Origin: Parcubacteria group bacterium
GTDB lineage: Bacteria; Patescibacteriota; Minisyncoccia; Phycocordibacterales; Phycocordibacteraceae
NCBI GenBank assembly: GCA_028286615.1
Contig: JAQBRG010000002.1
Span: 31,235-95,234, forward strand
Direction of reading: 5' to 3'
Length of the DNA: 64,000 nucleotides
The notes under the pieces were generated by a model. That model made no database searches and was not told the origin of the DNA. It saw only the letters and a list, made by a program, of their open reading frames with translations. Both the position numbers and the translations under genes were made by a program. How positions within the stretch are numbered: the stretch's first letter is position 1; the number at the start of each line of letters is the position of its first letter. This document shows, in pieces, positions 22,831-62,438 of the stretch.

Positions 22831-22843
22831 TTTAAATAAAGTT

Positions 22844-23167
22844 ATGAATGTCATAAGGGGAACACTTCATCGAGACAATTCAAGAGATAGTTACTGGTCC
22901 CGGATTTTGCTGAAGTCGTCTGAGAATAAAGGCGAGACTTTCGTATATGTATGTGCCTCGTATGAGTATTTAAATTACACATTAAATATTAAGACACTTA
23001 CAGATGAAGCTCTCCATGGATGGGTAGACGACGTCATCATCGAATGGACTGCAAAGGGAGACTCTATTTTTAAGAAACCTTTTCATATAGATGTAAAAGC
23101 TATCACAGAAGAAGGTCGTTTAAATGGTCTGGCATATCTAAGAAAGGAGGTAGTTCCCGCTGTTTAA
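22844..23167 (+). CDS. Hypothetical protein (107 aa)
   Basis: ORF 14 nt downstream of the previous gene with protein-like composition and no recognised family. Confidence 0.4.
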   Translation: MNVIRGTLHRDNSRDSYWSRILLKSSENKGETFVYVCASYEYLNYTLNIKTLTDEALHGWVDDVIIEWTAKGDSIFKKPFHIDVKAITEEGRLNGLAYLRKEVVPAV

Positions 23168-23235
23168 TATTTATCTTGTCCACATTTTAATTTCAGCATT
23201 TTCTTAACTTTATTTTAAATGGATTTAAGCCATAT

Positions 23236-24129
23236 ATGAGAGACTTTGTCTCTAACGCTCAAAATATGGAAACTGATATAATATTCTCAATGCCCGCAAG
23301 TGCCACTAACCGAATAGCTTCAAAACTCGAAACTGAGCCATACTTCAAAGAGAAGGATTTCTTGCTCTATAACGGAGACTCTATAGAGCTTCTGAATCAA
23401 ATGCCAGAAGAGTCTATAGATATGGTTTTCGCAGATCCTCCCTACAATCTTTCGAATGGAGGGTTTACTGTACATGCTGGAAAAATGGTAAGTGTTAATA
23501 AAGGGGATTGGGATAAGAGTAAGGGATTCGAAGACGACTACGATTTTCATTTTCGCTGGCTGCAAGCTGTACGGCGCGTATTAAAACCTCACGGAACCTT
23601 ATGGGTTAGCGGAACATACCACTCTATCTATCAATGTGGCCACGCGCTGCAAGCGCTAGATTTTCATATTCTGAACGATATCTCTTGGTTTAAACCGAAT
23701 GCGTCTCCCAACTTAAGTGGACGTTTCTTTACTGCTAGTCACGAGACAATTATCTGGGCTAGAAAGGAGAAAAAGGCTAAACACATTTTCAACTACAAGT
23801 TAATGAAAGAAGGGAACTGGCCAGAAGATGCTCTTAAGAAACCAGGCCTTCAAATGCGATCTGTATGGTCTATGGGAACTCCAAAACCTTCTGAAAAGAA
23901 GCATGGGAAGCATCCTACTCAGAAGCCGATAGATCTTCTTAAAAGAATTGTGCTATCAAGCACAAACGAGGGCGATGTCGTGCTTGATCCTTTCACAGGC
24001 AGCTCAACAACTGGTCTAGCTTCAATTACGCACGGACGCAAATTCATAGGTATTGATCTCGAGAAAGATTATCTTGATCTATCTATAAAAAGATATAAAG
24101 ATATCAACATGAATCCAAACCTGCTCTAG
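23236..24129 (+). CDS. DNA methyltransferase, beta-class amino-MTase (N6-adenine or N4-cytosine)
   Basis: Motif IV DPPY (VFADPPYNL) precedes motif I (VLDPFTGSSTTG), the beta-class order. NDISWFKPN is also present. Confidence 0.85.
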   Translation: MRDFVSNAQNMETDIIFSMPASATNRIASKLETEPYFKEKDFLLYNGDSIELLNQMPEESIDMVFADPPYNLSNGGFTVHAGKMVSVNKGDWDKSKGFEDDYDFHFRWLQAVRRVLKPHGTLWVSGTYHSIYQCGHALQALDFHILNDISWFKPNASPNLSGRFFTASHETIIWARKEKKAKHIFNYKLMKEGNWPEDALKKPGLQMRSVWSMGTPKPSEKKHGKHPTQKPIDLLKRIVLSSTNEGDVVLDPFTGSSTTGLASITHGRKFIGIDLEKDYLDLSIKRYKDINMNPNLL

Positions 24130-24131
24130 TT

Positions 24132-24932
24132 ATGCCCAAGAAACCATCATGGAAAGAAGAAGCTTGGGATACTCTACTAAAAAAGCTTTGGGACAATCGA
24201 GCTGAAGGAGTTACTTCTGTTGTGTATACAAAGGCTGATTTAAATCCAATTCTTTCGCAATACACACAATCTGGTCAAGGAGAGATACGAATATTCAACT
24301 CAAGTTCGAACGGACTCAATGCCTTAAAGCTTAGAGGTGTTAAGAAAATTCCTCTAACGAGAGATAGTTGGAGAATTGTTGAACGACCAGCAGCTATTGA
24401 ACTAAATGAACCTTCTGAAGGTGGCAAGTTTACTGCACAGCAAGAATTAACAGCTGGAATGATAGCGGGTATAGATGAGTCTATGCGTCATCGTTCTAAT
24501 CCTGGCGAGACAACGTTATTGGCTATAGCTAATCATATTGGAATAATTGCAGACTTTTACAACCTCAAGGACAAGGGGGTTTTGTTTACTGGAGGTAGAC
24601 AAAAAGCCGGTATTCATTTGGTCGTTGGGGATGCTGAACTAGACATGACCAAAGCTCAGATAGAAATCGATGGAGGGTTTGAATGGCGAGATAGTGTAGT
24701 AATTGCCGAAATGAAGAGCTCGTTTAAGCAAAAAGACTTCGACGTAAACCAAGCTCTTATTCCTATGCTGAAATGGCAGAAGTTACTTGTTGCCAAGAAA
24801 GTCTACTCTTTAGTTATGTTGGCTCAAACTAATAGGACTGGTATCGAATATTGGGCATATGATTTTGCGCATGAAGGGAAAGGTATTGGAATGAAAATAT
24901 CAAAGAGTAAAAAGTATCTTGTTGAAATATAA
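24132..24932 (+). CDS. Putative type II restriction endonuclease (PD-(D/E)xK candidate), cognate to the methyltransferase
   Basis: Starts 3 nt after the MTase stop. Candidate catalytic signature IEIDGG...(13 aa)...VVIAEMK. No other family assignment. Confidence 0.4.
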   Translation: MPKKPSWKEEAWDTLLKKLWDNRAEGVTSVVYTKADLNPILSQYTQSGQGEIRIFNSSSNGLNALKLRGVKKIPLTRDSWRIVERPAAIELNEPSEGGKFTAQQELTAGMIAGIDESMRHRSNPGETTLLAIANHIGIIADFYNLKDKGVLFTGGRQKAGIHLVVGDAELDMTKAQIEIDGGFEWRDSVVIAEMKSSFKQKDFDVNQALIPMLKWQKLLVAKKVYSLVMLAQTNRTGIEYWAYDFAHEGKGIGMKISKSKKYLVEI

Positions 24933-29515: not shown

Positions 29516-30211
29516 CTATTGTCCCGCTTTAGATACCGCCTGGTCTATAATCCGCTTCAAGCTCTGGTACGGAATAGTACCGCTTATGGTTGAAGGCTTC
29601 TGTCCCTTAACAAGAAGTACCACGTAAGGAGATCCGTCTGCTCCTGCGTTAAGTGCATTAATGGCGTCGTCCGTTACGTGTTTGCTGAACTGGTGTGAGC
29701 TTAAGCAGGTATTAAAGGTGTCAACTGAAATACCGAGCTGGGTAACAACTGTAGGATAATCCTTTGGATCAAACTGGTTCTCAGCGGGAGCCTGTGCCTG
29801 AACTAAGTCTATAAAGCGCCAGAATGCATCAGGCGCGCCTAGAGAAGCTGCACATTCAGCAGCTTCAGCGTGTGAGAGGGAGTTAGGATGCATGTCCGCT
29901 AGAGGAAAGTGTCTATATACCCACGCAACTTGTCCGCCAGAAGCGTATTCGCTCATAAGCTGCTCAAGTGTTGTTTGAAGTTGCTTGCTGTATGAGGAGT
30001 CTATATCTCCATACTCAACGATTGTTACGGCTGCCTGAGGGTTTCCAATGAGGTGGTCGCTAGGTGTAACGGGACGAACTGCAGTTGGGTCTCCTGCACT
30101 AACTGCTTCTTGGTGAGATCTAACAACGAAGATGGTAATGGCGAGAATAATACCGGCAAGCACAATTGCGCCTGGAATGAGATAGCGCTCGCGTATAGAG
30201 GCTGGTTGCAT
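29516..30211 (-). CDS. Membrane-anchored DsbA-like thioredoxin-fold protein with SxxS in place of CxxC (track ORF 29516..30319; likely start 30211)
   Basis: TM helix LIPGAIVLAGIILAITIFVV. Then GNPQAAVTIVEYGDIDSSYSKQ aligns to the DsbA/BdbD active-site region (VTIVEFSDFQCPFC) but carries SSYS. Confidence 0.55.
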   Translation of the reverse strand: MQPASIRERYLIPGAIVLAGIILAITIFVVRSHQEAVSAGDPTAVRPVTPSDHLIGNPQAAVTIVEYGDIDSSYSKQLQTTLEQLMSEYASGGQVAWVYRHFPLADMHPNSLSHAEAAECAASLGAPDAFWRFIDLVQAQAPAENQFDPKDYPTVVTQLGISVDTFNTCLSSHQFSKHVTDDAINALNAGADGSPYVVLLVKGQKPSTISGTIPYQSLKRIIDQAVSKAGQ

Positions 30212-30608
30212 AAAAAAATCATAGCACGAGGATAAAAGATCATGCCCTCGGAACGCTGTTTCCGAGGGCAGAGGGCGAACTATTTGCTGGCGTAAGAGGC
30301 CGGTGTTCTTGAGGGGCACTGATTAGATAGCCTATCCAGGGGAACATCCATTGTCTCGAAGAGCAGGCTCCACATTCGAATTCGCTGGCACATGCTCAAC
30401 CAAGCATCTGGGCTGATAACGAGATCCGCCCGTGCGGGTAATCCAGCAACAAGTTGCTTTTACTCCAGCTTTTTCGCTGGCTTGTTTAGCAATGGTTTTC
30501 AGGCCGTCTCCAGCACGATCAGGAAAGATCTCAGAAAGGATTTTCAACGCACATCCTCCATTAACTTATGCTGAATGCAGCATGCTACAGAAAACGGGAT
30601 TATGCAAC

Positions 30609-44390: not shown

Positions 44391-44924
44391 ATGAACCCTA
44401 GTGACAATACGACAACTGGTTTCCATCTTTTCCTGATGCCTTCAGGGGAACTTAAAGAGACTCTTTCCGGAGTTATTAAGACGTTGGCAGAGAGATACCA
44501 GGGAGTGCTTTTTGAGCCACACGTAACGCTGATGAAAATACCCGAAGGGAACGAAGAGCAGGTGATATCTCTTGCACAGAGTTTTGCACAAAACAGCACG
44601 CCTATAACACTTTCTCTAGAAGACATGGGTATGGAAGAGACATTCTTCCGTGCTCTATACTTGAAAGTTAATCCGAACGAAGCCCTCGAAGCATTGCATG
44701 CTAGAGCAGCGAATGTATTCGGACTTAACGACGCTGGTGCCTTTACTCCGCACCTAAGTCTCTTCTATGGAAACGTACCAGAAGATCTTAAAAGGGAAAT
44801 GGTGTCCTCACTAACCCTTCCATTACCTCTCACCTTTATTGCAGAATCTTTACACGTATACAAAACAGGAGGCACTACAGAACAATGGGAACAGATTGCG
44901 GAATATCCGTTCCCTAAGTCTTAG
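44391..44924 (+). CDS. 2H phosphoesterase superfamily protein (LigT / cyclic phosphodiesterase-like)
   Basis: Two H-x-T/S-x motifs: PHVTLM and PHLSLF. Confidence 0.6.
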   Translation: MNPSDNTTTGFHLFLMPSGELKETLSGVIKTLAERYQGVLFEPHVTLMKIPEGNEEQVISLAQSFAQNSTPITLSLEDMGMEETFFRALYLKVNPNEALEALHARAANVFGLNDAGAFTPHLSLFYGNVPEDLKREMVSSLTLPLPLTFIAESLHVYKTGGTTEQWEQIAEYPFPKS

Positions 44925-45670
44925 TCCTGAGAGATTAGGTTTTTAACAAACTCCTCAGTATCTTCGGGCCCTGCTACGGCATGAGTTGGAATACCCGTTT
45001 CTTTTACAACCTCATCGTTTCCGTTAGGACCGAGCTCGTCTCCTATATAAAGCATTTCTGAAATTGGTACGTTGAGATGCTCGCTCAGTTTGCGTACTCC
45101 AAACGCCTTGTTGATACCATGCTTTGTTATGTCTATGGTTGTGGCACCTCCGCGCTTAACGTCGAAGTCTGGAAGCTGTGCAGATATTATTTCCCGAAGA
45201 GCATTTCGTTTCTCCCCGCTTGGATCCCATGCTTCTTTTTCCTCAACTGGTGCTTGCTGTCCAAGGGCGGATAGTGCAACCTGTGCCCCGCGGTTCTCAA
45301 TACGAGGTCCATGAGAAGGAATGCTTTGGTCAATAATATACGTTTCTTTCAAGACCTTCTCTAGCACCTCTTCAATCTTCGCTTCTTCTTGAGCACTAAG
45401 CCTTTCTTCGTATACAAGTGTCCATGCGTCGCGGTATTCGTGCAGTGCGGCGCCCGATGTGGGCATGAGATACAGCTTGTGCAAATCGGTGTCTTTAGGC
45501 AGCTGGTCAACAACTTGTTTCAAAAACTGCTCTAGTTTTCCTCCAGATATAATCCCAACACTCGTATGCGAAAGAAGCTCCTTCAGACTGCTCGCCATTG
45601 ATGGCGTAATTTCAGACTTGCTTCGTGCAAGTGTTCTGTCTATGTCGAACATAACAACGCGAGGAATCAT
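44921..45670 (-). CDS. HAD-IIB phosphatase/mutase resembling eukaryotic-type phosphomannomutase (PMM)
   Basis: VVMFDIDRTLARSKSEITPSMASSLKELLSHTSVGIISGGKLEQFLKQV aligns with the PMM2 N-terminus (LFDVDGTLTAPRQKITKEM...IGVVGGSDFEKVQEQL). C-terminal YIGDELGPNGNDEVV...AVAGPEDT aligns with FFGDKTMPGGNDHEI...TAPEDT. Confidence 0.65.
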   Translation of the reverse strand: MIPRVVMFDIDRTLARSKSEITPSMASSLKELLSHTSVGIISGGKLEQFLKQVVDQLPKDTDLHKLYLMPTSGAALHEYRDAWTLVYEERLSAQEEAKIEEVLEKVLKETYIIDQSIPSHGPRIENRGAQVALSALGQQAPVEEKEAWDPSGEKRNALREIISAQLPDFDVKRGGATTIDITKHGINKAFGVRKLSEHLNVPISEMLYIGDELGPNGNDEVVKETGIPTHAVAGPEDTEEFVKNLISQD

Positions 45671-47589
45671 AGATTGGGAAGTAGTTTCTTCATAAGCTTC
45701 TCCTTTGAAAGGGTGGCAACACCAAGAGAAGTATCCGCGCCTCCGTAATAGATATAGAGCGTATCGTCTCTAAGCACGATACCGCACGAAAAGACCACAT
45801 TCGGCACCATGCCCTCACGTTCCCAAGGGAGTACTGGCTCAAGTATTGGAGCAACGGTTCTTGCGATAACGGTAGTACCCGCCTCGTCCAGAAGTGCAGC
45901 ACCTAAGCGGTATTCGTGGTCTCCACCCACACCATGGTAAATAAAGAGCCAGCCTTCAGGAACTTTAATAGGTTGTGATGCAGCACCGACTTTAATGGCG
46001 TCCCACATTCCTGGTCGTGGGCCCATAAGCTCGATACAGCGGTTCGTCTCTCGGTTAGGGGGTAGTGTATCAAGTTCGTCGAGACAGATGTCTGGATCAA
46101 TGCGATGCATAAACAGGAACTTGCCAGCAACTGGCTCAGGGAATATCGCAATGTCTTTGTTGTTCATGCCCGCTGGAGTAACAAGCAAAGGGGTACTCCA
46201 CGCATCAAAACGTTTTGCGACAAAGTCTTCTACTGAAATACTGCTGTACGCACCACGTGTCTCATGCTCTCCATCGTATGCGGTGTAGCAAAGATGCACT
46301 CGATTCTCAAACACAATTGCTCTCGGATCTTCGCAGCCAGAGTTGCCATCTGGCTTCCCGTGCTTCTTCTCAAAGTCTTCTCGAGGAGCGTATGCTGGAA
46401 CATCTGAACGTTCATCCACATGCAGGCCGTCTGCAAGACGCGCATAACCCATAACCGAAGTGTTCTCTGCACCCATGGCTCGATACAGAAGATGTACAGA
46501 ACCTTCTACATCAATTGCTGCTGCGTTACATACTGAACGGGTCTCCCAAGCATTTTGTGTAGGGGAAAGTATAGGATTGCCCTCGAAACGAGTTGCGAAA
46601 GCAGCGCGGCCCTCTGGGGTCATGGTCTCAAGAAGATCTGAGAGCGAGAGAGTAGCAAGGGCTGAAGAGGTATCTGCAGCTCCGTAGTAGACAGAAAGAA
46701 TATCGCCCTCAATAACCGCGCTAGTGGGGAAGACTATGTTGCTAACAAGCCCGTACCGCTCGTATGACTCCTCGGGCACCATGAAAGGATAGCTAGTGCA
46801 GCCAATAATCTTTTGAGGATCATTTGCGTCAAGAAGAAGTGCCTCAACGCCAAAGAGACGTTTGTGCTCGTCGTAGTAATTCTGAATGTGAGAATAAATA
46901 AGAAGCCAGCCTTGAGGAATGCGTACCGGGGTTGCAGCAATCTCCATGTGCTCTGTATCAGAACGACGCACATCAGGAAGCGCGTGCTCAGCGAGGTTCT
47001 CGTGCCATTCTTTCCAGAATTCTGGATTCCAGAAGTCCTCAACCTGCTTTGCGCGAGCGATACCAATAGTTGGATGAGAATTAGCTTCAGTCCAATCGGT
47101 ATGCGCAGTTAACAACAGTACAACCTCTCCATTTATACGTTCAGGGAAAAGCGTGGCAGCTTTTGCATTAAAAGGCGTAACAAGATGCTTCTCAGTTAGA
47201 GTCGTGGGGCTGTCGCCAACAGCTACCGCAACTTTGATATTGTCGGGACCAAAAGGGTAACCTCCGAGGGCGGTGTAGAACACATACCATTTTCCTTCGA
47301 AGTACGTAGCTCGGGGATCTTCGCAACCATAGTGTTCCCATTCTTCAGTTGGAGATATAACCTGCTGGGACTCATCGAATACTGCCGTCTTGGTCGCTGC
47401 ATACCCAACAGTTGAAAAGGCTCGCCCTGGAGTCCGAATGGCATCTGGTTCCGCATGAGCTCTGTAGAACACGTGTCGCGTACCATCTTTGACAACAACT
47501 GAAGGATTGAATGCGCCAACAGCCTCAAATGCACGCCCACTGTTTGGAGCGATTATAGGATTCTCTGGTGAGCGTTTAACAACAAGCAT
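45667..47589 (-). CDS. Glycoside hydrolase family 130 (mannoside phosphorylase-like), tandem duplicated GH130 domains
   Basis: Two copies of GH130 signatures (FNPSVVVKDG...HVFYRA; YGCEDPRATYFEGKWYVFYTA; GCEDPRAIVFENRVHLCYTAY; EGWLFIYHGVG). Confidence 0.8.
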   Translation of the reverse strand: MLVVKRSPENPIIAPNSGRAFEAVGAFNPSVVVKDGTRHVFYRAHAEPDAIRTPGRAFSTVGYAATKTAVFDESQQVISPTEEWEHYGCEDPRATYFEGKWYVFYTALGGYPFGPDNIKVAVAVGDSPTTLTEKHLVTPFNAKAATLFPERINGEVVLLLTAHTDWTEANSHPTIGIARAKQVEDFWNPEFWKEWHENLAEHALPDVRRSDTEHMEIAATPVRIPQGWLLIYSHIQNYYDEHKRLFGVEALLLDANDPQKIIGCTSYPFMVPEESYERYGLVSNIVFPTSAVIEGDILSVYYGAADTSSALATLSLSDLLETMTPEGRAAFATRFEGNPILSPTQNAWETRSVCNAAAIDVEGSVHLLYRAMGAENTSVMGYARLADGLHVDERSDVPAYAPREDFEKKHGKPDGNSGCEDPRAIVFENRVHLCYTAYDGEHETRGAYSSISVEDFVAKRFDAWSTPLLVTPAGMNNKDIAIFPEPVAGKFLFMHRIDPDICLDELDTLPPNRETNRCIELMGPRPGMWDAIKVGAASQPIKVPEGWLFIYHGVGGDHEYRLGAALLDEAGTTVIARTVAPILEPVLPWEREGMVPNVVFSCGIVLRDDTLYIYYGGADTSLGVATLSKEKLMKKLLPNL

Positions 47590-47592
47590 GAA

Positions 47593-48753
47593 TTAGACAG
47601 TAGTGAGTAGTGGCGCTTGGTTGTGCAAGATGGAATCAATAAAGGAAGAAAGCTTAGCTCCTGCTGTACAGACTACCGAATCACCTCCGCCATAATACAC
47701 CTGAAGAGTGTCGTTCTGGATAGTAGCGCCGCAGGCATATACCACGCCTGGCTTACCCTCATTCTCGTAGTCTTCAACTGGCTCAAGTATGGGTCGAGGA
47801 GAACGAGCCAAGACCTTTGTTGGATCGTCTAGATCAAGAAGCATAGCCCCCATCTTATATTTGTGAGGCTGGCCCTTTTCCATGGCGTGATACAGAAGGA
47901 GCCACCCCCTATCAGTTCGCATGGGAGGGGGTCCTGCACCGCGCACTCGATCATGCCAGACTCCAGAGGACTCGTCTGCTGTGTCTGAACGAGCTCCTTC
48001 GTAACTTGATATGAAGGGCTTTGTCTTTCCAACATTATCCAACTCATCTACGTACTCAATTTCAACTTTCGGAAAGATGCTGTGTAGTATTGCGAATTTT
48101 CCATGTATCTTCTCTGGGAAAAGCATCCAGTTCTTATGTACTTGGTTAGGAGCAGAAAGGAATACTGGCTTAGTCCAGTTCCACTTTTTCTTCGCTAACT
48201 CATCTGCAAGAATTGAAGTAACCGCCATGCGCAAAGATTGCCAGTTATGAAAGGCAGAGAACGTGAGATATACACGGTCTTCAATCTGTACTGCACGCGG
48301 ATCTTCACACCCGCCCCAACTTCCTCCTGAAGCTACCAAGTTTGGGTAAGTCTTTTCGATATACGCGCGGTCCGTTGGGCGAAGAGCATCCTGGCCATCA
48401 AGAGAAAAGACCGGGTAGGGAAGTCGATCGTCTACAACTACTCCATCTTTTGATGTGGCATGACCTATGCGAGACACTCCATCTTTTCCAATTGCTCGAT
48501 AGAAAAGATGCGTAAGTCCATTTACGATAACTGCCCCAGGATTCATAACTCCCGCTGCCTCCCACTCGTGAGAAGTTGGAGAAAGGATAGGATTTCCTTT
48601 TGCGCGATTTAGTCGAAGGACTTCAAGAGCGACTCTGAATCCTTTCTCTACGCGCTCTATCCACAAGAACTGCCATATCCCGTACAGGAAGAGAATGGTG
48701 GTTACGCTTGCCGCGATTATCGCTGGAATAATAACTAGGAAGTCGCTATCCAT
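47593..48753 (-). CDS. Glycoside hydrolase family 130 protein with N-terminal transmembrane anchor
   Basis: TM helix VIIPAIIAASVTTILFLYGIWQFLWI. GH130 motifs MNPGAVIVNG...HLFYRAIG, GGCEDPRAVQIEDRVYLTFSAF, RGWLLLYHAM. Confidence 0.8.
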   Translation of the reverse strand: MDSDFLVIIPAIIAASVTTILFLYGIWQFLWIERVEKGFRVALEVLRLNRAKGNPILSPTSHEWEAAGVMNPGAVIVNGLTHLFYRAIGKDGVSRIGHATSKDGVVVDDRLPYPVFSLDGQDALRPTDRAYIEKTYPNLVASGGSWGGCEDPRAVQIEDRVYLTFSAFHNWQSLRMAVTSILADELAKKKWNWTKPVFLSAPNQVHKNWMLFPEKIHGKFAILHSIFPKVEIEYVDELDNVGKTKPFISSYEGARSDTADESSGVWHDRVRGAGPPPMRTDRGWLLLYHAMEKGQPHKYKMGAMLLDLDDPTKVLARSPRPILEPVEDYENEGKPGVVYACGATIQNDTLQVYYGGGDSVVCTAGAKLSSFIDSILHNQAPLLTTV

Positions 48754-48755
48754 AG

Positions 48756-49112
48756 TTATGTTATACGGCCGAAGTCGTCTTCAACTCGTTCAATATCGTT
48801 CTCGTCGAACTCCCCACGCGCAATCTCCAAGACTTTGATGCCAGCAGGGCCGCCCGTAAGACGATGAAGGGTATCTACTGGAATCTCAATCCGGTCTCCA
48901 ACGGATACTTCTTTCTCCACGTCTCCAATATGAACGGTGCCGCTACCCTCTATAACTTGCCAAAACTCAGAGCGTCTCGAATGTTTCTGTAGAGAGAATC
49001 GCTTCTCAGGGTGTACCGTCAGAATCTTAACGGTACACGGTTCGTTATGTATGAATTGGTCAAATCCACCCCAGGGACGGTCTTCGTGGTATGTGTCTAG
49101 GTTCATGGCCAT
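48756..49112 (-). CDS. Cupin-domain protein, type II mannose-6-phosphate isomerase-like
   Basis: EDRPWGGFDQF is the RPWG motif of cupin-type MPI. Metal-binding pattern QKHSRRSEFWQVIEGSG...H. Length 118 aa. Confidence 0.65.
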   Translation of the reverse strand: MAMNLDTYHEDRPWGGFDQFIHNEPCTVKILTVHPEKRFSLQKHSRRSEFWQVIEGSGTVHIGDVEKEVSVGDRIEIPVDTLHRLTGGPAGIKVLEIARGEFDENDIERVEDDFGRIT

Positions 49113-49177: not shown

Positions 49178-49678
49178 TTAGTTGCTAAGACAGAATTTGG
49201 CGCTGCCTGGAATAGGACCCTCTGCATGTCCATCAGCACATACGGTTACGCGTGCTGTGGCGAAATCTTGAACGATGGTGTATCCCGTATCGTAGTTTTC
49301 TCCTGAGGCACACGTTGGGGCCGTACATGTGTTAAACCCTTCCTTTGGATCCATAGGCAATTCGCTCATGTATGTAGGCACAAGACATGGCCTAATGTCG
49401 AAGCCGCTTTGCGAATTAGCCATAGGAAGTTTAACTGCGGGTAACGACGCGCAGGAGCCTTTAGGAAAGATACCCCTGTTATCAGCAAGACGCTGACCAA
49501 TACCGTTAAGTATGGCTGCCACGTTCGCTTCACGTTGCGAGTTTCTTGCCTGAGCAAACTGCCTCATGGGATTAATAGACACAATCACAACAGTTGCCAG
49601 AATTGCGAGCATGCCAATAACGACAAGAATTTCGATGAGGGTAAAACCTCGCTGCACAGGGTTGGTAGTAATATGCAT
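49178..49678 (-). CDS. Type IV pilin / pseudopilin (prepilin-type N-terminal cleavage/methylation domain)
   Basis: Leader plus RGFTLIEILVVIGMLAILATVV is the class III signal peptide. Length 166 aa. Confidence 0.8.
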   Translation of the reverse strand: MHITTNPVQRGFTLIEILVVIGMLAILATVVIVSINPMRQFAQARNSQREANVAAILNGIGQRLADNRGIFPKGSCASLPAVKLPMANSQSGFDIRPCLVPTYMSELPMDPKEGFNTCTAPTCASGENYDTGYTIVQDFATARVTVCADGHAEGPIPGSAKFCLSN

Positions 49679-49750
49679 GGAATTATTATTAGTCTGGTAC
49701 GCCTAGAGCATACGCAAACACACCCCTGGTTTCTGCTAGAAAACGATAAA

Positions 49751-50116
49751 TTATTTATGAAATGTGAATTGCCGCTCTACGACTACAGATTCTGATCGCC
49801 CTTGAGTAGCGACAGTATAAGAATCGCCATGCAATTCAACGCTTAAAACACTGCACGTTAGATCTCGGTCAAGCGTTAGAACGTCACCTGATGGAGCTGG
49901 TCTGTAAGAAGGAATTATTTTCAGCTTCCTTTGCACAAGCTCAGCACATGCTATAGCCTGTGCTTTTGCTTGTGTGTGGAGTTCTGCTTCAAAAAGTGTG
50001 AGCCTAAGAGAAATAATCTCTCTAGCTCCTTGAAGAACAAGGACTATAAGCACTGAACTAATGACCAGGATGCTAATTAACGCTGCGTACCCTCGATGTA
50101 GTTTGGTACTCTTCAT
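49751..50116 (-). CDS. Hypothetical small pilus-associated protein (hydrophobic N-terminus, no canonical G-FTLIE)
   Basis: 121 aa. N-terminal YAALISILVISSVLIVLVL. Embedded in the pilin operon and overlaps the upstream gene by 4 nt. Confidence 0.4.
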   Translation of the reverse strand: MKSTKLHRGYAALISILVISSVLIVLVLQGAREIISLRLTLFEAELHTQAKAQAIACAELVQRKLKIIPSYRPAPSGDVLTLDRDLTCSVLSVELHGDSYTVATQGRSESVVVERQFTFHK

Positions 50117-50535
50117 GGCAGATAAAGTCGCGCACTGTATGTTGTCGAGGCAATCGAGAATGAATACTCATAAATTTCAGATATAGATACCTTAAAATCA
50201 GTAACAACAATATTGTTACTATTTAAAGGCATGGCAACTGTATTTTTCTTTAAAATAAAGTCTCCTTCGTCACTATAAAACTTCACTACATCACCCGTGT
50301 TGTTTTGAAGGACTAAGATCTCTGAGGAAGTGTCACCCGTCTGAACAATAAATCCTTGGTCTTCAAACGAAGATATTTTTGCAAGTATAAACAAAGCCTC
50401 TTCCTTGGAGACTATTTCAATATGGTTTTCTTCAGCTGAGCTTTGGACTTGTAAATAGCAAGCAATTAGACCAGAAACCAAGATGCTAAACAGTGCGATG
50501 TATATGAGTGTTTCAAATAAGGTAAATGCACGCAT
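50113..50535 (-). CDS. Pseudopilin / minor pilin
   Basis: MRAFTLFETLIYIALFSILVSGLIA is a prepilin-type N-terminus. Confidence 0.7.
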   Translation of the reverse strand: MRAFTLFETLIYIALFSILVSGLIACYLQVQSSAEENHIEIVSKEEALFILAKISSFEDQGFIVQTGDTSSEILVLQNNTGDVVKFYSDEGDFILKKNTVAMPLNSNNIVVTDFKVSISEIYEYSFSIASTTYSARLYLP

Positions 50536-50537
50536 AA

Positions 50538-52007
50538 CTAAGAGCCAGCTATGGCTGTTAAATACCCAAAACCCAAGCTATTCGAAGAGGCTACATATAA
50601 AGTGCCGCCATGACATTTAAGTGCGCTTGCCGTCTGGTTAACCCCAAGAGGCGTCTGATATATCTGTTTGGTGTTAGCGGTGTTATATGTGTCCCATATA
50701 CCAAGCTCGTTCCCGGTAAGAAGAAATGCAAGATCTCCCTGAGACTCAATCCCATACACATTCTTATAGGTGTGTTGGGTGTAGCTATTTCCTAACCCGC
50801 CGTCTGGTTTGAGGTCGAAAGAATAAAATTCAGGCACCGTATCATTTACGTGTGTTCTTACAAAGAGAAGACGATCTCCAGAAATAGCGAGATCTCGAGG
50901 GTATGCGATACCCGGTACTTGAAGTCCTGTTCCAACTTTCTTAATGGATCGTGGGTTGCTAATGTCTAGGACCAGTAAGTCTACGCCAGTATTGCTGTGA
51001 TCTTCCGTAGCGACATATGCATAATTCCCTTGCACAAGAATTGCCTCAACACCAAGTCCTATACGATAGCTTCCAAGTAGAACCAGTCGCGCAGGATTCC
51101 TAGCATCAAGAATATTGAACTCGCTACCTGCTTTTGTCTTTACTAATCCAACGTAGAGTCGATGTTGGTAATAGGTAAGACTTTGAACCGCTGCGCTGCG
51201 CCCGTTCGCATCTATAGCTTTAGGAGTCGAGGATGTCGGGAATTTATAACTGCTAAGGAAAGACGATTTGTTACTCGCACTGAGTTTATAAGTTCTAATC
51301 TGATCACACGAAGATGCTGTTCTGCATGTGACTGCACTAGCGCTTCCGAAGGAGTTTCCTGCGTATGCATATCCATCTCCAATCTCTACAGCGGAAAACC
51401 CAACTGTACTCATCGGTGCATTATCAAAGCTCGCAATTGTTTTCGGAGAAGCTGGGTTTACGAGGTTCACAAAAAAGATAGTCGGATCACTTACCCTTGA
51501 AGTAGACTGAACTGTAATTGCCGCTAAAGTGTCTGAGAAAGCGAGGTCAGTAATTGGATAGGAGCCCTTGGGAGTAACACGAGCACTCGAAACAGCACGA
51601 GCACGAGACCAATCTCCTGTGGGTACGGGATCGCAATCTGAATTAAGATTTTCAGTATTTGTAATTGCTGAACGTACTGATGCAAAGCGTGTCTCACCCA
51701 TACCATCCTCCCAGGAAATTGTGGCCGAGAATTTCTTTGTGGCCCCGTTTGCCGTTGAAGAAGAGGCACCGCTTGTCTCATAAGAACCTATGGTAGTAGT
51801 CCCAATGGTAATTATGTTTGAGAAATTACCCTTTGCTCGTATCCGTGCATCATCAAGCATTTCAGAAACTTGGTCTATTGCAGTACCGCGTAAGGCAATA
51901 TTTTCAAGCATCGTTGGGGTACCAAGCACCACTAACAAAACCGCTACTAGTGTGCTGATACCAATAGCAAACGCAATAAGTATTTCAAGAGTAGAAAAGC
52001 CTCGCAT
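50538..52007 (-). CDS. Large pilin-like protein with prepilin N-terminus and beta-propeller-like (LVIVD-type) repeats, candidate tip adhesin
   Basis: MRGFSTLEILIAFAIGISTLVAVLLVVLG. Its 489 aa include repeated blocks ending in ...YAYVA..., ...LLVLDISNP... and ...LYVASSN... Confidence 0.65.
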   Translation of the reverse strand: MRGFSTLEILIAFAIGISTLVAVLLVVLGTPTMLENIALRGTAIDQVSEMLDDARIRAKGNFSNIITIGTTTIGSYETSGASSSTANGATKKFSATISWEDGMGETRFASVRSAITNTENLNSDCDPVPTGDWSRARAVSSARVTPKGSYPITDLAFSDTLAAITVQSTSRVSDPTIFFVNLVNPASPKTIASFDNAPMSTVGFSAVEIGDGYAYAGNSFGSASAVTCRTASSCDQIRTYKLSASNKSSFLSSYKFPTSSTPKAIDANGRSAAVQSLTYYQHRLYVGLVKTKAGSEFNILDARNPARLVLLGSYRIGLGVEAILVQGNYAYVATEDHSNTGVDLLVLDISNPRSIKKVGTGLQVPGIAYPRDLAISGDRLLFVRTHVNDTVPEFYSFDLKPDGGLGNSYTQHTYKNVYGIESQGDLAFLLTGNELGIWDTYNTANTKQIYQTPLGVNQTASALKCHGGTLYVASSNSLGFGYLTAIAGS

Positions 52008-52018
52008 ATAAGTAGAAG

Positions 52019-52462
52019 TTATTCATTGACGCGGATGCCGCCTTCAGAATTTATAAATATGGTATCCATATGATCTGGATATACGAGATGCATTGAGCCC
52101 GGATTTAAGACCCCACCATCTTGTGCACTGAATACGATCTCGGTTAGGCCTTCCACGTGAAAATCTTGTTCTTGATTTACACGCTCCCCATCGTTTGTAC
52201 GGTCTACATACGAGGAGCCTTCAAATCGAACGAAAGAATTATTTATGTAGATAACCCCGTGAGAGGGAGGGTGTGCGCATGATTCAGCACACGCACCCTG
52301 AAGCGTGTCTGCGCGGGCACGTCGGAGCATCTCCACCACTATTTCTGTCTCGTTACGGTTCTGTGCACGGGTAAGGCTCGTAACTTCAACAACACTCATC
52401 ACTAAGCCAATAGAAACCAGAGCAAGCACTATAAGAGTCTCGAATATTGTGAAGCCCCTCAT
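52019..52462 (-). CDS. Pseudopilin / minor pilin
   Basis: MRGFTIFETLIVLALVSIGLVMSVVEV is a prepilin-type N-terminus. Confidence 0.75.
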   Translation of the reverse strand: MRGFTIFETLIVLALVSIGLVMSVVEVTSLTRAQNRNETEIVVEMLRRARADTLQGACAESCAHPPSHGVIYINNSFVRFEGSSYVDRTNDGERVNQEQDFHVEGLTEIVFSAQDGGVLNPGSMHLVYPDHMDTIFINSEGGIRVNE

Positions 52463-52464
52463 AG

Positions 52465-53538
52465 TTAACGGATGCCTACATCCTGAGTTATCTGGTACAC
52501 AGGCGTAATGATTGCTAAAGCAATGAAGCCAACCATAAGACCGATGACAATCATCAATACCGGCTCAATGAGAGTCGCAAGATCTTTTGAAAGCTGCTCC
52601 AGCTCCTCCTCATACATACGTTCGATAATCGAGAGGCTTTGATGGAGCGTGCCAGTTGCCTCTCCTGTTGAAAGCAGTTGTATGCAAGAAAGGGGAATCA
52701 GACGAGTCTGAGACTTGAATGCGTCTGAAATTTTCCCTCCTGCTCGCACTGTCTGCACAGCTTGTATGAGAACTTCTCTGTACAACAAAGAAGGGCTCGC
52801 TTCCGCAGCAAGGGCGAGCGCTGGCATGAGTTGTACACGATTAGCGACTAACGTGGATAGGACATGACCCAAAGACGTTAAGGCATGTGCCTTAAACACA
52901 CGCCCAAGAAGTGGAATGGCGTAAAGAAATTTCTCACGAGCACGTTGTATGTGCTCGTATCGCTGTGCCCACCAAAACACCGAGATAAGAATTATTATTC
53001 CCATAAACACATACAGCCCATAATCCGACGTGAAGTTGCTCACCTTAATAAGTAATCGAGTTGAAAAGGGAAGCTCTGATTTGAAGCCTTCGAACAGAGG
53101 AACTATTTTTGGAAACGCGTAGGTAGTTAGCATTATGCAGATTCCAATGGTTGATATCACAATAATGCCAGGATATATAAGAGCACTTAACGCCTTTTGA
53201 CGTACTGTACGTTGTTTCTTTAGTGTTAAGCCTGCGTGCTCAAGGCTATCCGCAAGAGTGCCACTACTCTCTCCCATGCGAATAAGGGTTATGGTGAAGT
53301 GATCAAAATGTCGCGGAAATTCGTTGAGTGCATCCGCGAGCGCTCGTCCAGCGGACACAGCCTTAGCAAGTGAGGTAATGATAAAGACAGTTCCTTTATT
53401 TCTTTCTGTCTCTTGCATAAAGTCGAGTGCAGTAAGAAGCGGCATGCCAGATGCGAGGAATGTTGAAAGCTGGCGCGCGAAGAGAATGCGTTCCTGAGCC
53501 CCAAACATAAGGAAAAGAGGTCTCTCGTTATTGCGCAT
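52465..53538 (-). CDS. Type IV pilus / T2SS platform protein (PilC/GspF family)
   Basis: 357 aa with duplicated GspF domains and three TM segments (ARQLSTFLASGMPLLTAL ... LATLIEPVLMIVIGLMVGFIALAI). Confidence 0.85.
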   Translation of the reverse strand: MRNNERPLFLMFGAQERILFARQLSTFLASGMPLLTALDFMQETERNKGTVFIITSLAKAVSAGRALADALNEFPRHFDHFTITLIRMGESSGTLADSLEHAGLTLKKQRTVRQKALSALIYPGIIVISTIGICIMLTTYAFPKIVPLFEGFKSELPFSTRLLIKVSNFTSDYGLYVFMGIIILISVFWWAQRYEHIQRAREKFLYAIPLLGRVFKAHALTSLGHVLSTLVANRVQLMPALALAAEASPSLLYREVLIQAVQTVRAGGKISDAFKSQTRLIPLSCIQLLSTGEATGTLHQSLSIIERMYEEELEQLSKDLATLIEPVLMIVIGLMVGFIALAIITPVYQITQDVGIR

Positions 53539-54769
53539 GGCAGACTCGTAAGACCTCAGAGAGGGTGGTAATACCGCTTGCCGCTTTTCGTATTCCGTCG
53601 AGCATCAGTGAGTGCAAACCTAACGGCGTACCTATACTCCCTCCAAATATATCTTCAGGATCACCAAACAAGACCTCGGGAACTAAGTCACGAGGCTCGA
53701 CCACCTCGTAAAGCCCAACTCGTCCCTTAAAGCCATTTGCGCAGGACGCACACCCAACCCCTTTAAAGAGTTTCTGAGGAATCCTCTCATTTGCAGGCAG
53801 CATCTCAGAAAGCAGGTGTTGTTCATTTAACGACGGAGTATGTTCAACTTTGCATTCTGCACATATACGACGTACTAGTCTTTGGGCAATAATCAGTCTG
53901 ACTGTAGAGGCAAGGAGATAGGGCTCAACCCCAAGATCGAGAAGACGAGGAATCGAGGTGAGCGCATCAGTAGCATGTAGCGTCGACAAGACCAGGTGCC
54001 CTGTAAGAGCAGCGTTTATGGCCAGTCCGGCGGTCTCCCTATCTCGTATCTCTCCAACAATGAGCACATCTGGATCCTGCCGAAGAATTGCACGTAGGCC
54101 AGTTGAGAAGGTTAATCCTGCGCTGTGATTAGTTTCAATTTGGCGTACACCAGGAAGAGAATACTCGATAGGGTCTTCAATCGATACTAGAGAACGGTCA
54201 GGAATATTAAGTATTTTCGCAAACGTATAAAGTGATGACGTTTTTCCGCTGCCTGTAGGGCCTGTAACAAGAATGAGGCCGTGTGGGTGAGTAAGGGTGT
54301 TTTCTATCTTTACGCGATGCTCATCCATAAAACCAAGACCTTCAAGAGTCATGGACTCTGATCGAGGAGAAAGAAGACGTAGAACAACGTTGCCGCCATG
54401 ATACGTAGGCATAATTGATACTCGGATATCGAGCCAGTCGTGAGAAGACAGAGCAAATCTAAATCGGCCGTCCTGAGGAAGCTGGTGCTCATCCGTTCGT
54501 AACCCAGCTAACACACGAACTCGTGAAAGAAGCTCTGCGTGTATCTTTTGCGGGAACTTGTAGCGTTCTTCAAGAATTCCGTCACAACGGAATCGTATTC
54601 TTACTGATTCTCCCTCGGGGTCCATGTGTAGATCAGAGGTTCCAGCAACTTGTGCCTCACCGATCAAAGCATCTAAAAGAGCTATTACTGAAAGTCGATC
54701 ACCATTTGAAAGTTCTCTGTTAACTGCTGTATTTTTTTGACGACTCTTACGTGTTGTTTGTTCTGGCAT
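53528..54769 (-). CDS. Type IV pilus assembly ATPase (PilB/GspE family)
   Basis: Walker A LVTGPTGSGKTSSLY, Asp box ILRQDPDVLIVGEIRD, His box. C-terminal tetra-Cys CAECK...CASC. Confidence 0.9.
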   Translation of the reverse strand: MPEQTTRKSRQKNTAVNRELSNGDRLSVIALLDALIGEAQVAGTSDLHMDPEGESVRIRFRCDGILEERYKFPQKIHAELLSRVRVLAGLRTDEHQLPQDGRFRFALSSHDWLDIRVSIMPTYHGGNVVLRLLSPRSESMTLEGLGFMDEHRVKIENTLTHPHGLILVTGPTGSGKTSSLYTFAKILNIPDRSLVSIEDPIEYSLPGVRQIETNHSAGLTFSTGLRAILRQDPDVLIVGEIRDRETAGLAINAALTGHLVLSTLHATDALTSIPRLLDLGVEPYLLASTVRLIIAQRLVRRICAECKVEHTPSLNEQHLLSEMLPANERIPQKLFKGVGCASCANGFKGRVGLYEVVEPRDLVPEVLFGDPEDIFGGSIGTPLGLHSLMLDGIRKAASGITTLSEVLRVCHAQ

Positions 54770-55275: not shown

Positions 55276-55683
55276 TTAGCTGCCAAAGAGTCTTTCTCTG
55301 GCAGCTTTTTTCGCTGCCTCGAATTCAGAATCAGAAAGTGTATGCATTTTCCACTTGAGACGTTTTGAGCTCACAGGTCTAGTTTGCGACAAAATTGCGG
55401 CCGCTTCTGTTTCTCTTACTTCTCCTAGTGGATAGTAGAAAACAGAATCCTTAATCTGTGAACTTAGCGGGATACCAATAAACAGGTTCTTATTAAACTT
55501 TCTTACAATTAAGATAGGTCTTAAGAAATCACCACCGCTACCGTTCTCCTCATGGCCTACATTCTTGCCTAAGTGACAAAGCCAGACCTCTTTGACCCGA
55601 AAGCGCGGAATATCTGACGGCAATCTCGAATCAATTTGTTTCTTTAATAAATGCCACCTATCTAGATCTTCTTGTTTTGACAT
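55276..55683 (-). CDS. MazF/PemK-family toxin-like endoribonuclease (orphan)
   Basis: VWLCHLGKNVGHEENGSGGDFLRPILIVRKFNKNLFIGIPLSS matches the MazF/PemK pattern (W...G.E..G.RP.LV.S........V.PLTS). Confidence 0.55.
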   Translation of the reverse strand: MSKQEDLDRWHLLKKQIDSRLPSDIPRFRVKEVWLCHLGKNVGHEENGSGGDFLRPILIVRKFNKNLFIGIPLSSQIKDSVFYYPLGEVRETEAAAILSQTRPVSSKRLKWKMHTLSDSEFEAAKKAARERLFGS

Positions 55684-55736
55684 GGGCAGATTATGCCCTT
55701 TTGAGTTAAGAGAATTATGACGAGAGCTCCAAGCAA

Positions 55737-56000
55737 TTACATGTCATACACCGAATGGTCTCCAATCGAGAGAAATATGGCTGATTGGTCTTGTGTCTCC
55801 CATATAAAGATAATGCGAAAGCGATAATTTACGGAAAAGCTTAAACGTCCCTGAAGTTTTCCTTTGAGCTTATGTACCTTGAGAAGGGAGTGTTGCTTAA
55901 TATTCCGGAATAACTCTATCTTTTGGAAGACCTCCTCCTGGAGAGCTTTTGGAAGCTTCTTAAACTGACGCTTGAACTGCGGAGCGTAGGATACTTTCAT
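55737..56000 (-). CDS. RelE/ParE-family type II toxin
   Basis: 87 aa. MKVSYAPQFKRQFKKLPKALQEEVFQKIELF...NYRFRIIFIW is the RelE/YoeB-like architecture. Confidence 0.7.
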   Translation of the reverse strand: MKVSYAPQFKRQFKKLPKALQEEVFQKIELFRNIKQHSLLKVHKLKGKLQGRLSFSVNYRFRIIFIWETQDQSAIFLSIGDHSVYDM

Positions 56001-56003
56001 GAG

Positions 56004-56225
56004 TTATTCTCCAAGAAGTATTTTTCTAGCATCGTCTCCACGTAGAATCTTGCCGCTTGCTACTTCACGTTCGGCTCGAAGGACAGCCTCAATGGCTTCT
56101 TCCTCAGCAAACCAGGCAAGTGCGCGACGCATCACGTCAGCTTTGTTAGAGCCAGCCCCATTTGCCACAAGGGCGTCTAGACTTTCCTGAAGCTCAGCTG
56201 TTAGGGGTACAGATATTGTAGCCAT
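56004..56225 (-). CDS. Ribbon-helix-helix antitoxin
   Basis: 73 aa. MATISVPLTAELQESLDAL forms an RHH beta-strand plus helix. The gene ends 4 nt before the RelE start. Confidence 0.6.
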   Translation of the reverse strand: MATISVPLTAELQESLDALVANGAGSNKADVMRRALAWFAEEEAIEAVLRAEREVASGKILRGDDARKILLGE

Positions 56226-61669: not shown

Positions 61670-61880
61670 ATTGTGAGTAAGATCGATGCACCTGATAACT
61701 ATCAAGTGCAGGAGGCTGAAGAGGGAAACTCGACTCGTCTTCTTTACTCAGCACTGCGTTTGACCTAGTCAATTTACAATACTTTGTTTTCGGTGTCAAA
61801 CATCCTGCTCTTCATTATTCAGTATCTGGTATGATAAGAGATATCCTATGGGCAAGAAACATCTGATCCAGCACGTTCAT

Positions 61881-62438
61881 ATGGAGAATAGAGGTTTTAC
61901 CCTTATTGAACTTATGGTTGTTATAGCCATAATCGGTCTCCTTAGTACCATACTATTCTCTTCGTTTACGCTCGCTCAGGTAAAGGCACGAGATGCTGGA
62001 CGCCTCCAGACCATGCATTCAATGCAGCAGGCTCTCGAACTATTTTATTCCAAATACAACGCGTATCCTTGCGGTGCTCTGCCAGCACCTTCTCCCGGGA
62101 TCACCGTTGCTACTGATGGGGATTGGCTGCATACAGGCACACAACCTGACACCTTCCTTGATGGATATCCAACAACATGGGCCCAGCCTTGTGGAGGCGC
62201 GTACCCGTGGCACGGGATTGTCGCTGAAGCCCTGCTTCCTGCCGTAAAAGATGGAAATGGAAGTTACTACGCATATGACGTATCGGTAGATCGACAGAAG
62301 TACATTCTCTATGTAAATCTTCAGGATCCTGTTAATGCTACAAGGATGGCAAACGATGGGGGACTCAGAAGTTGTTATTACGAGATAGGAAATGGAGTTG
62401 GAACGATGACGCCGCAGTGGCTCTGTCCTTCTCCGTAG
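61881..62438 (+). CDS. Type IV pilin (prepilin-type N-terminal domain); track ORF starts 61848
   Basis: MENRGFTLIELMVVIAIIGLLSTILF is a class III signal and could be the major pilin. A strong terminator follows. Confidence 0.8.
   Translation: MENRGFTLIELMVVIAIIGLLSTILFSSFTLAQVKARDAGRLQTMHSMQQALELFYSKYNAYPCGALPAPSPGITVATDGDWLHTGTQPDTFLDGYPTTWAQPCGGAYPWHGIVAEALLPAVKDGNGSYYAYDVSVDRQKYILYVNLQDPVNATRMANDGGLRSCYYEIGNGVGTMTPQWLCPSP

Follow-up and report, generated by a model that had tools for sequence, protein, structure and literature searches.

The 64,000-nucleotide stretch of a metagenome-assembled Parcubacteria group bacterium genome analyzed here (contig JAQBRG010000002.1; the whole stretch is called the window throughout) encodes, in seven open reading frames (ORFs) on the minus strand, a PilB-type ATPase, a PilC-type platform protein, and five pilin-like proteins, named below by their lengths in amino acids (p147, p489, p140, p121, and p166). 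These ORFs fill positions 49178-54769, exactly the interval that a first-pass annotation of the window had delimited. By analogy with characterized filaments, we propose, with moderate confidence, that the locus specifies a compact accessory type IV filament, with a tip complex that would display an adhesin module for attachment to a partner cell. The candidate adhesin is p489, in which a pilin domain is fused to a predicted beta-propeller, and the seven genes are found as a conserved cassette across Patescibacteria.

A Pilin With a Seven-Bladed Propeller

As predicted by AlphaFold2, p489, which is identical to the NCBI entry "hypothetical protein JWN64_103," is a modular pilin consisting of a canonical prepilin end, a small pilin domain, and a seven-bladed LVIVD beta-propeller. 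In the model (predicted local distance difference test score, pLDDT, 83; predicted template modeling score, pTM, 0.77; 35-sequence alignment), the pilin module comprises, in protein numbering, a 3-residue leader, an alpha1 helix at residues ~4-60, and a four-strand sheet at ~68-116, while the strands that follow between residues 137 and 487, 27 long and one short, make up seven four-stranded blades. Pfam recognizes one LVIVD repeat (PF08309) at residues 322-355, scoring 31.4 bits versus the gathering cutoff of 20.2, and in a Foldseek search of the PDB the model matches seven-bladed WD40-type propellers, with E-values down to 5e-12 and template modeling (TM) scores of ~0.47-0.50. The beta-propeller that the first-pass annotation had read into the repeats of this protein is thus borne out by fold prediction, structural search, and family assignment, and its reading passes the refuting test that it had set, the lack of a propeller or of a fold resembling an adhesin.

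A database search returned 42 relatives of p489, all from Patescibacteria or from unlabelled metagenomes, and ~35 of them are full-length, at 24-34% identity. The G↓F-S-T-L-E-I-L-I-A end (the arrow separates residues -1 and +1), with G-1 and Glu5, and the propeller are kept in all of these ~35 homologs, and the homologs are likewise annotated PF08309. A profile of the pilin module, run against 1.84 billion cluster representatives (50% identity), matched 2213 with E<=1e-3; the count was 687 with E<=1e-10 and 147 with E<=1e-30. Among the 150 top-scoring matches listed, lengths of 480-540 aa predominate, suggesting that the p489-type pilin module is normally fused to a propeller. The same profile retrieved nothing meaningful from all PDB sequences. 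In the longer relatives, Big_3_5 or MBG Ig-like domains are appended after the propeller. The propeller modules are acidic, with isoelectric points (pI) of 4.2-6, in 30 of 34 relatives.

Nearly all members of the family retain Cys125 and Cys465, which in the model could link the first and the last blades, and Cys228 and Cys234 of p489 lie in one loop. Invariant or near-invariant positions are occupied by Gly, Pro, aromatic, and aliphatic residues, plus one Asp and one Glu within the repeat motif, with no sign of a conserved catalytic set made of His, Ser, or Cys. This lack of catalytic-type residues counts against viewing the propeller as a pilus-displayed enzyme, for example a hydrolase acting on the partner envelope, and not as a passive adhesin. 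Sphingobium phosphotriesterase (5hrm, E ~3e-10, ~495 aligned columns) and tetrathionate hydrolase (6l8a) do occur among the Foldseek matches, and modular pilins with peptidase modules have been catalogued (PMC8179133), but the matches ranked highest are WD40 scaffolds without catalytic function, the TM-scores are only ~0.5, and we consider an enzymatic role very improbable.

A Self-Contained Cassette of Patescibacteria

The genes are transcribed in the order PilB, PilC, p147, p489, p140, p121, p166 (Table 1). In this order, the junctions measure -11, 2, 11, 2, and -4 nt, the PilC-type gene overlapping the ATPase gene by 11 nt and the p121 gene overlapping the p140 gene by 4 nt, followed by 72 nt before the p166 gene; such tight spacing points to an operon with translational coupling. 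The first-pass annotation had listed "4-5 pilins" encoded by five consecutive genes, and the sequences agree, four having canonical class III prepilin ends (G or A at -1, Phe at +1, and Glu5) and one, p121, being a variant in the style of GspK/ComGG. It had also named PilC and a short PilB of 413 aa, and both are identified by Pfam, but it had them follow the pilins, while in transcription they precede them. The gap before the p166 gene is non-coding and measures 72-115 nt in the window and three relatives, and the other junctions in those cassettes are 0-11 nt or overlapping. The gap could house an internal promoter or a regulatory element raising the major pilin; a promoter and terminator scan of the operon gave counts not above those of shuffled sequences and nothing usable in the 72-nt gap.

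The same seven-gene series is present at three homolog loci, with no type IV pilus (T4P) accessory genes within 8 kb, and a scan of GTDB species-representative genomes, with an 11-sequence subset of the p489 alignment as the query, revealed 48 loci, making ~50 loci in total, from Kaiser-, Doudna-, Nomura-, and Adlerbacteria, Paceibacterota, and other Patescibacteria. Comparative genomics across relatives, which the first-pass annotation had suggested as a check, shows the same gene order in 49 of the 50 loci, L033 being the exception, when the seven proteins are compared by blastp with every ORF of the loci; a single T2SSE gene is present within +-7 kb at each related locus. The median identities are 49% for PilB, 34% for PilC, 30% for p147, 27% for p489, 34% for p140, 30% for p121, and 52% for p166; thus the minor pilins diverge fast (27-34%), and PilB and p166 are well conserved. 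The flanking genes are unrelated between loci; for 146 flanking ORFs from 28 loci, a list of 25 Pfam families, which takes in every family seen in at least three ORFs, shows no T4P accessory family, and neither PilM/N/O nor a prepilin peptidase. The conserved order and the differing flanks argue for a self-contained unit, not a fragment. The description of the locus as minimal in the first-pass annotation, with PilB, PilC, and pilins only, is correct. The cassette is distinct from the usual pilus locus of candidate phyla radiation (CPR) bacteria, in which PilB, PilT, PilC, PilM, PilN, PilO, and PilD co-localize (PMC6744442).

Two relatives, detected through p166, are clearly eroded, one (L054) having no PilB and a 62-aa stub in place of the first minor pilin, and the other (L055) encoding PilB, then an 83-aa remnant of the propeller C-terminus and the J, K, and major pilins, but no PilC; assembly error is possible in these cases. 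They could be taken to mean that the window cassette is itself a decaying remnant, carried but no longer assembled, with PilD, PilT, and PilMNO absent nearby. However, the seven ORFs of the window are intact and tightly coupled, the order is kept across distant Patescibacteria as described above, and the functional motifs (Walker A, the CxxC pairs, G-1/Glu5, and the Cys pairs) are retained, making decay a very unlikely explanation.

Motor, Platform, and the Missing Parts

The cassette possesses three of the components by which the type IV filament (T4F) superfamily is recognized: a T2SSE-family ATPase, a two-domain T2SSF platform, and, on four of its five pilins, class III ends. The ATPase is short, with no N-terminal T2SSE_N/MshEN domain in Pfam, and it has a Walker A motif, GPTGSGKT, starting at residue 170, and CxxC pairs at 303/306 and 340/343. 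Among the NCBIfam models, it scores 428 bits with GspE (cutoff 630), 427 with PilB, and 244.9 with ComGA (cutoff 300), all below the equivalog cutoffs. In comparisons with PDB sequences, PilB (5zfr, 1.3e-93) and GspE (4kss, 1.7e-90) score far stronger than PilT (~1e-30), marking the ATPase as an extension motor and not PilT. Scores for the platform protein are likewise all below the cutoffs, at 254.7 bits with GspF (cutoff 424), 185 with Thermus PilC, and 132.4 with ComGB (cutoff 240).

As to the parts that are missing, the first-pass annotation had reported no pilM, pilN, pilO, or pilQ, and indeed the 64-kb window yielded none of these, and no pilT or pilD either, in Pfam searches of the operon and of the membrane and unknown ORFs and on reading of the other ORFs. 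The PilM/N/O and PilT proteins by which a type IVa pilus (T4aP) locus is recognized (with PilQ in diderms) were thus not encountered in the window; the related loci have one T2SSE gene each within the span given above, and PilM/N/O are not among the Pfam families listed for their flanks, but such genes may lie elsewhere in the genome. A look beyond the window for PilD, PilT, or PilMNO of the same genome yielded only a 12-kb Logan contig, which carries no pilus genes.

Two other genes in the window touch on pilus biology. One encodes an orphan 196-aa pilin, 7 kb from the cassette and surrounded by no pilus genes, which may be a member of another pilus system of the organism. The other encodes a membrane-anchored DsbA/thioredoxin-like protein, of a family that is enriched in CPR and has been proposed to oxidize pilin cysteines (PMC6744442); its relevance here lies in the six conserved Cys of p166 and the conserved Cys pairs of the propeller.

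The Small Pilins and the K Position

The candidate major pilin, p166, has an 11-residue leader and six invariant or nearly invariant Cys. Its relatives amount to 2754 clusters at E<=1e-5 (family entries P0190-P0308), the top ones being 52-65% identical over the full length, and no other pilin of the cassette is as well conserved, a degree unusual for a pilin. Based on this conservation, its canonical processing site, and its position, p166 is likely the major subunit. The confident AlphaFold2 model (pLDDT 92) has a lollipop fold, for whose head a fold search of the PDB gave no significant match, the best being Clostridioides difficile PilW and PilA1 at E>1, and structure does not place p166 with T4a pilins, GspG, or ComGC. 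With the NCBIfam models, p166 reaches 29.3 bits with GspG (cutoff 88.85; weak, at 7e-7), and ComGC scores are 17.9 bits or less (cutoff 75).

Among the small pilins, only p166 passes the Pfam N_methyl gathering threshold of 21.2 bits, with p147 at 17.3 and p140 at 19.1, and TIGR02532 (NCBIfam) passes for both p166 and p147. Weak matches to ComGD/GspH, driven by the N-terminus, are seen for p147, and weak matches to ComGE, ComGD, and ComGF for p140. Orthologs are detected by blastp at the same position in 28 loci for p147 and in 46 loci for p140. Assignment of the minor pilins to GspH/I/J/K or ComGD/E/F/G was rejected, as the NCBIfam matches are below cutoff and limited to the N-terminal helix. 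The H, I, J, and K labels used here reflect only gene order and the K-type N-terminus of p121, which is without Glu5.

No Pfam or NCBIfam family is recognized in p121, and a word-index homolog search retrieved only p121 itself, its relatives being found via synteny. The N-terminus of the K-position protein, G↓F/Y-I/V-A-L-x-S, is conserved in ~35 loci. GspK, PilX, and ComGG are also without Glu5, and by analogy p121 is likely a filament-capping subunit. The K position varies in size: in about two thirds of the loci, the window (121 aa) being counted with them, the protein is 123-156 aa, and in ~11 loci (about one third) it is 650-1630 aa, with the same pilin-like N-terminus. A vWA domain is present in nine of the ten large proteins scanned (Table 1), some of which also carry SpaA_2 Ig-like domains. 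Relatives of p489 of ~670 aa (P0024, P0025, P0026, and P0036) have an extra segment of ~150-170 residues with no Pfam match, which seems, on reading the sequences, to lie early in the propeller region, and a similar motif (..NFGF.IP.GATI.GI..) is found in the K-position ORFs of L045 and L051.

Comparison With Known Systems

Of the two closest precedents, one is the second T4P system (T4P-2, the "thin pilus") of TM7x (Nanosynbacter lyticus, Saccharibacteria), whose minor pilin PilX2 bears a seven-bladed RCC1 propeller; deletion of pilX2, pilA2, or pilB2 halves host binding, with competence and twitching unaffected (PMC11623550). Both systems belong to CPR hosts, have their own PilB and PilC but no PilT, and rely on a five-pilin set whose largest minor pilin ends in a seven-bladed propeller; TM7x has one small, highly expressed major pilin. 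The differences are also clear. Going by its published description, PilX2 has RCC1 repeats and no predicted PilD signal, while p489 is of the LVIVD type, with no RCC1 match in Pfam and with a canonical G↓FSTLE. In addition, TM7x T4P-2 has PilM2/N2/O2, and its pilins are encoded at a separate locus, while the cassette is a single seven-gene operon with no PilMNO.

The other is presented by the modular pilins of Streptococcus sanguinis (Raynaud et al. 2021, PMC8179133), of which PilB (with a vWA module), the protein that established the concept, is a proven adhesin and PilC carries a lectin module. As described there, these pilins resemble p489 in combining a small pilin module, a short linker, and a bulky functional module in a monoderm host, but the locus behind them is complete and T4aP-like, and it includes PilT and PilMNO, both missing from the cassette. 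The combination of pilin and LVIVD is itself not new: Dataset S1 of the same paper already lists IPR012902 (N_methyl) with IPR013211, which we confirmed to be LVIVD, in several copy-number variants. In the part of that article available to us, the LVIVD motif is said to be "of unknown function," and no structure, genomic context, or family analysis is given. LVIVD repeats are also known from cell-surface proteins of archaea and bacteria (Adindla et al., 2004, PMC2447325); the title and abstract of that paper make no connection to type IV filaments. In p489, repeats of the same family are grafted onto a type IV pilin and, in the AlphaFold2 model, form a propeller.

A further likeness is to PilY1/PilC, the tip adhesin of the T4aP of Pseudomonas, Neisseria, and Myxococcus, which has an N-terminal vWA-like module and a C-terminal seven-bladed propeller and sits on FimU-PilV-PilW-PilX, four core minor pilins that also prime the pilus. 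The same two types of module are here carried by the I-position pilin (the propeller) and, in relatives, by the K-position pilin (vWA). However, PilY1 is not a pilin but docks on minor pilins, and its propeller is of another family (IPR008707), while p489 is itself a pilin. No PilY1/Neisseria_PilC match was found in p489 by Pfam, and PilY1 is absent among the 50 Foldseek matches listed. The likeness should therefore be seen as functional and architectural, not as membership in the family.

In gene content and order, the cassette resembles the Firmicutes comGA-GG operon and the GspE-F-G-H-I-J-K core of the type II secretion system (T2SS), with an ATPase, a platform, and major plus four minor pilins, including a K-type one without Glu5; as in ComG, the operon does without PilMNO, PilT, and a secretin, and the peptidase would likewise come from elsewhere in the genome. 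Unlike in either system, the gene resembling the major pilin is last, not first, and adhesin-type modules are present on minor pilins, while every score with the ComG and Gsp equivalog models is below cutoff, and GspC, GspL, GspM, and GspD are absent (none was found by Pfam in the window).

These likenesses raise two alternatives. The main one is a competence (Com-type) pilus, a CPR counterpart of comGA-GG that would capture DNA for ComEC-dependent uptake, with the large minor pilin serving as a DNA receptor similar to Thermus ComZ. This would agree with the comG-like layout of ATPase, platform, and five pilins without PilMNO or PilT, with the ATPase being short as is ComGA, and with the weak ComGD, ComGE, and ComGF matches of the small pilins. 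CPR genomes are rich in ComEC, and DNA scavenging via pili has been proposed for them (PMC6744442); DNA uptake would suit organisms unable to make nucleotides, and large DNA-binding minor pilins such as ComZ do exist (cited in PMC8179133). On the other hand, the scores with the ComGA, ComGB, and ComGC equivalogs are far below cutoff, the GspE/PilB and GspF models scoring higher, and the candidate major pilin, with 155 mature residues and three likely disulfides, is unlike the small ComGC. No comEC, comEA, or dprA adjoins the cassette in the window or is among the recurrent flanking families. With the propellers being mostly acidic, which argues against general DNA binding, with vWA and Ig-like adhesin domains in relatives, and with the propeller-pilin system of TM7x not needed for competence (PMC11623550), we consider a role in competence unlikely.

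The other alternative is a T2SS-like pseudopilus, a short piston pushing folded proteins through the monoderm wall or S-layer, with no long surface pilus. In its E-F plus H-I-J-K set of proteins the cassette recalls the T2SS core, the platform scores best with GspF and the ATPase scores with GspE as well as with PilB, and p166 has its weak GspG match. Against this, every T2SS equivalog model scores well under its cutoff, the window lacks GspC, L, M, and D as noted, and CPR cells have no outer membrane (PMC6744442). A 40-kDa propeller and, in relatives, vWA/Ig tip proteins of 70-170 kDa are also easier to reconcile with an adhesin on display than with a piston in the periplasm. A secretion piston thus appears quite improbable, more so than a competence pilus.

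A Proposed Filament for Partner-Cell Attachment

How could an attachment filament of this kind operate? Based on established T4F biology and on the GspH-I-J-K and FimU-PilV-W-X priming complexes, the prepilins would be cleaved by a prepilin peptidase encoded elsewhere, and the four minor pilins would assemble on PilC as a priming complex capped by p121, the subunit without Glu5. PilB-driven polymerization of p166 would then lift the minor-pilin tip outward through the monoderm envelope, with no secretin involved. The p489 propeller would thereby be displayed at the pilus tip, where it may attach to a ligand on the surface of a partner or host cell, a glycan or protein being the most probable. 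As the cassette encodes neither a retraction ATPase nor PilMNO, the filament would be non-retractile, or it would borrow motor and alignment parts from the main T4P locus of the organism.

The proposed role of p489 as a tip adhesin for partner attachment, put forward already in the first-pass annotation, gains support from several sides: the location of its gene within an H-I-J-K-like minor-pilin array, the vWA- and Ig-bearing K-position pilins in relatives, the Ig-like extensions on the longer members of its own family, and the precedent of the propeller pilin PilX2 in Saccharibacteria (PMC11623550). Adhesion is judged the likeliest job in view of these modules and this precedent, of the conserved motor and shaft next to fast-diverging minor pilins, and of the acidic nature of most propellers.

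Several observations weigh against such a role. The tip position is deduced from the order of the genes and by comparison with GspH-I-J-K and FimU-PilV-W-X, and a DNA-uptake pilus would be just as consistent with the ComG-like layout. The window propeller, with a net charge of +1, is near neutral, whereas most of its relatives are acidic. The p489 family revealed no conserved motif for ligand binding, and its invariant residues look structural. No prepilin peptidase (PilD/ComC, Peptidase_A24) turned up in the window or among the Pfam families listed for the cassette flanks, and prepilin processing is therefore an assumption. Finally, the decayed cassettes in some relatives suggest that the system is dispensable in some lineages.

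A more far-reaching proposal, possible but doubtful at present, is that the cassette represents a distinct, unclassified, and Patescibacteria-specific branch of T4F, separate from T4aP, Com, and T2SS, with no alignment complex and no dedicated retraction motor. In such a branch, the two modules of PilY1 would have become fused to core minor pilins, the propeller always on the I-position pilin and the vWA and Ig stalks on the K-position pilin in about one third of the lineages, and the tip complex would be a host-recognition device. If so, the fast-evolving propeller would be a primary determinant of the partner cell of each Parcubacteria lineage.

Genomic Surroundings

The rest of the window encodes, as read from translations, housekeeping functions such as rpoB, rpoC, dnaG, rpoD, and hisS. 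Toxin-antitoxin genes, including a MazF/PemK-like toxin and a RelE/ParE-like pair called by eye, are located just upstream of the operon. Directly downstream are a short ORF resembling a cupin, a pair of GH130 genes of the mannoside phosphorylase type (386 and 640 aa), and a gene for a HAD/PMM-like hydrolase, the cupin and HAD calls coming from reading of the sequence alone; two-component genes and an ABC transporter follow at somewhat greater distance. A neighborhood of MannoseP_isomer, GH130, ABC, and two-component genes is seen again in relative L054, and HAD, GT4/5, and GH57 genes recur next to four other cassettes. This recurrence probably reflects lineage synteny and not a functional link. 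Elsewhere in the window, a low-GC island combines a Gabija system with a type II restriction-modification pair, a DUF3800 gene lying between the two.

Table 1. Positions of the cassette genes and of other features discussed in the text. Positions refer to the window unless a related locus (L) is named; arrows separate residues -1 and +1 of prepilin ends.
Feature	Position	Strand	Length	Basis or remark
PilB/GspE-type extension ATPase	53528..54769	-	413 aa	Pfam T2SSE, E=2.8e-111
PilC/GspF-type inner-membrane platform protein	52465..53538	-	357 aa	two T2SSF domains, E=2.6e-44
Minor pilin p147, H position	52019..52462	-	147 aa	MRG↓FTIFETLIV
Modular minor pilin p489, I position	50538..52007	-	489 aa	MRG↓FSTLEILIA; LVIVD PF08309
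p489 pilin module, residues 1-122	51642..52007	-		AlphaFold2 secondary structure
p489 beta-propeller module, residues ~125-489	50541..51635	-		AlphaFold2, seven blades of four strands
Minor pilin p140, J position	50113..50535	-	140 aa	MRA↓FTLFETLIY
Pilin-like p121, K position	49751..50116	-	121 aa	MKSTKLHRG↓YAALISILV, no Glu5
Candidate major pilin p166	49178..49678	-	166 aa	QRG↓FTLIE; N_methyl 31.7 bits
Non-coding gap before p166 gene	49679..49750		72 nt	
Non-coding gap before p166 gene, relative	L001:10384-10487			
Non-coding gap before p166 gene, relative	L003:12617-12730			
Non-coding gap before p166 gene, relative	L004:13207-13301			
Large K-position protein	L003:10043-12616			
Large K-position protein	L004:10513-13206			
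Large K-position protein	L006:8999-11503			
Large K-position protein	L007:9195-12230			
Large K-position protein	L011:9009-10982			
Large K-position protein	L016:2938-5898			
Large K-position protein	L031:2865-4898			
Large K-position protein	L034:9044-13936			
Large K-position protein	L041:9063-11543			
Large K-position protein	L048:9521-12289			
Eroded cassette	L054:6417-10567			no PilB
Eroded cassette	L055:7699-10531			no PilC
Orphan pilin	61848..62438	+	196 aa	..NRG↓FTLIELMVV; N_methyl 34.4 bits
DsbA/thioredoxin-like membrane-anchored protein	29516..30319	-		Thioredoxin_4 E=1e-13; DSBA E=1e-7
Toxin-antitoxin genes upstream of operon	55276..56225	-		
MazF/PemK-like toxin	55276..55683	-		E=1.8e-9
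RelE/ParE-like pair	55737..56000 and 56004..56225	-		by-eye call
Cupin-like, GH130, and HAD/PMM-like genes downstream of cassette	44921..49112	-		
Low-GC island	18076..24932	+		GC 0.40-0.44 vs ~0.48-0.53 nearby
GajA	18076..20139	+		E=1e-275
GajB	20139..21881	+		E=4e-246
DUF3800 gene	22027..22830	+		
Methyltransferase of the island	23236..24129	+		E=4e-98
Putative endonuclease of the island	24132..24932	+		E=4e-8

Conclusions

Parcubacteria/Paceibacteria are among the most abundant CPR lineages, and we know of essentially no cultured representatives, nor, to our knowledge, is it known how they find or hold a host. What is new here is that p489 belongs to a widely conserved seven-gene cassette of Patescibacteria that is devoid of PilMNO. 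While this finding does not overturn current understanding, and while the locus would simply be another accessory pilus if the propeller turned out not to be a host-recognition element, the exposed domain of p489 (residues ~125-489) is a concrete candidate for host recognition, suited to expression and ligand-binding tests. If the propeller is indeed such an element, then the precedent of PilX2 would be extended to a much larger part of the CPR, and the sequence of the propeller could predict host range from metagenomes.

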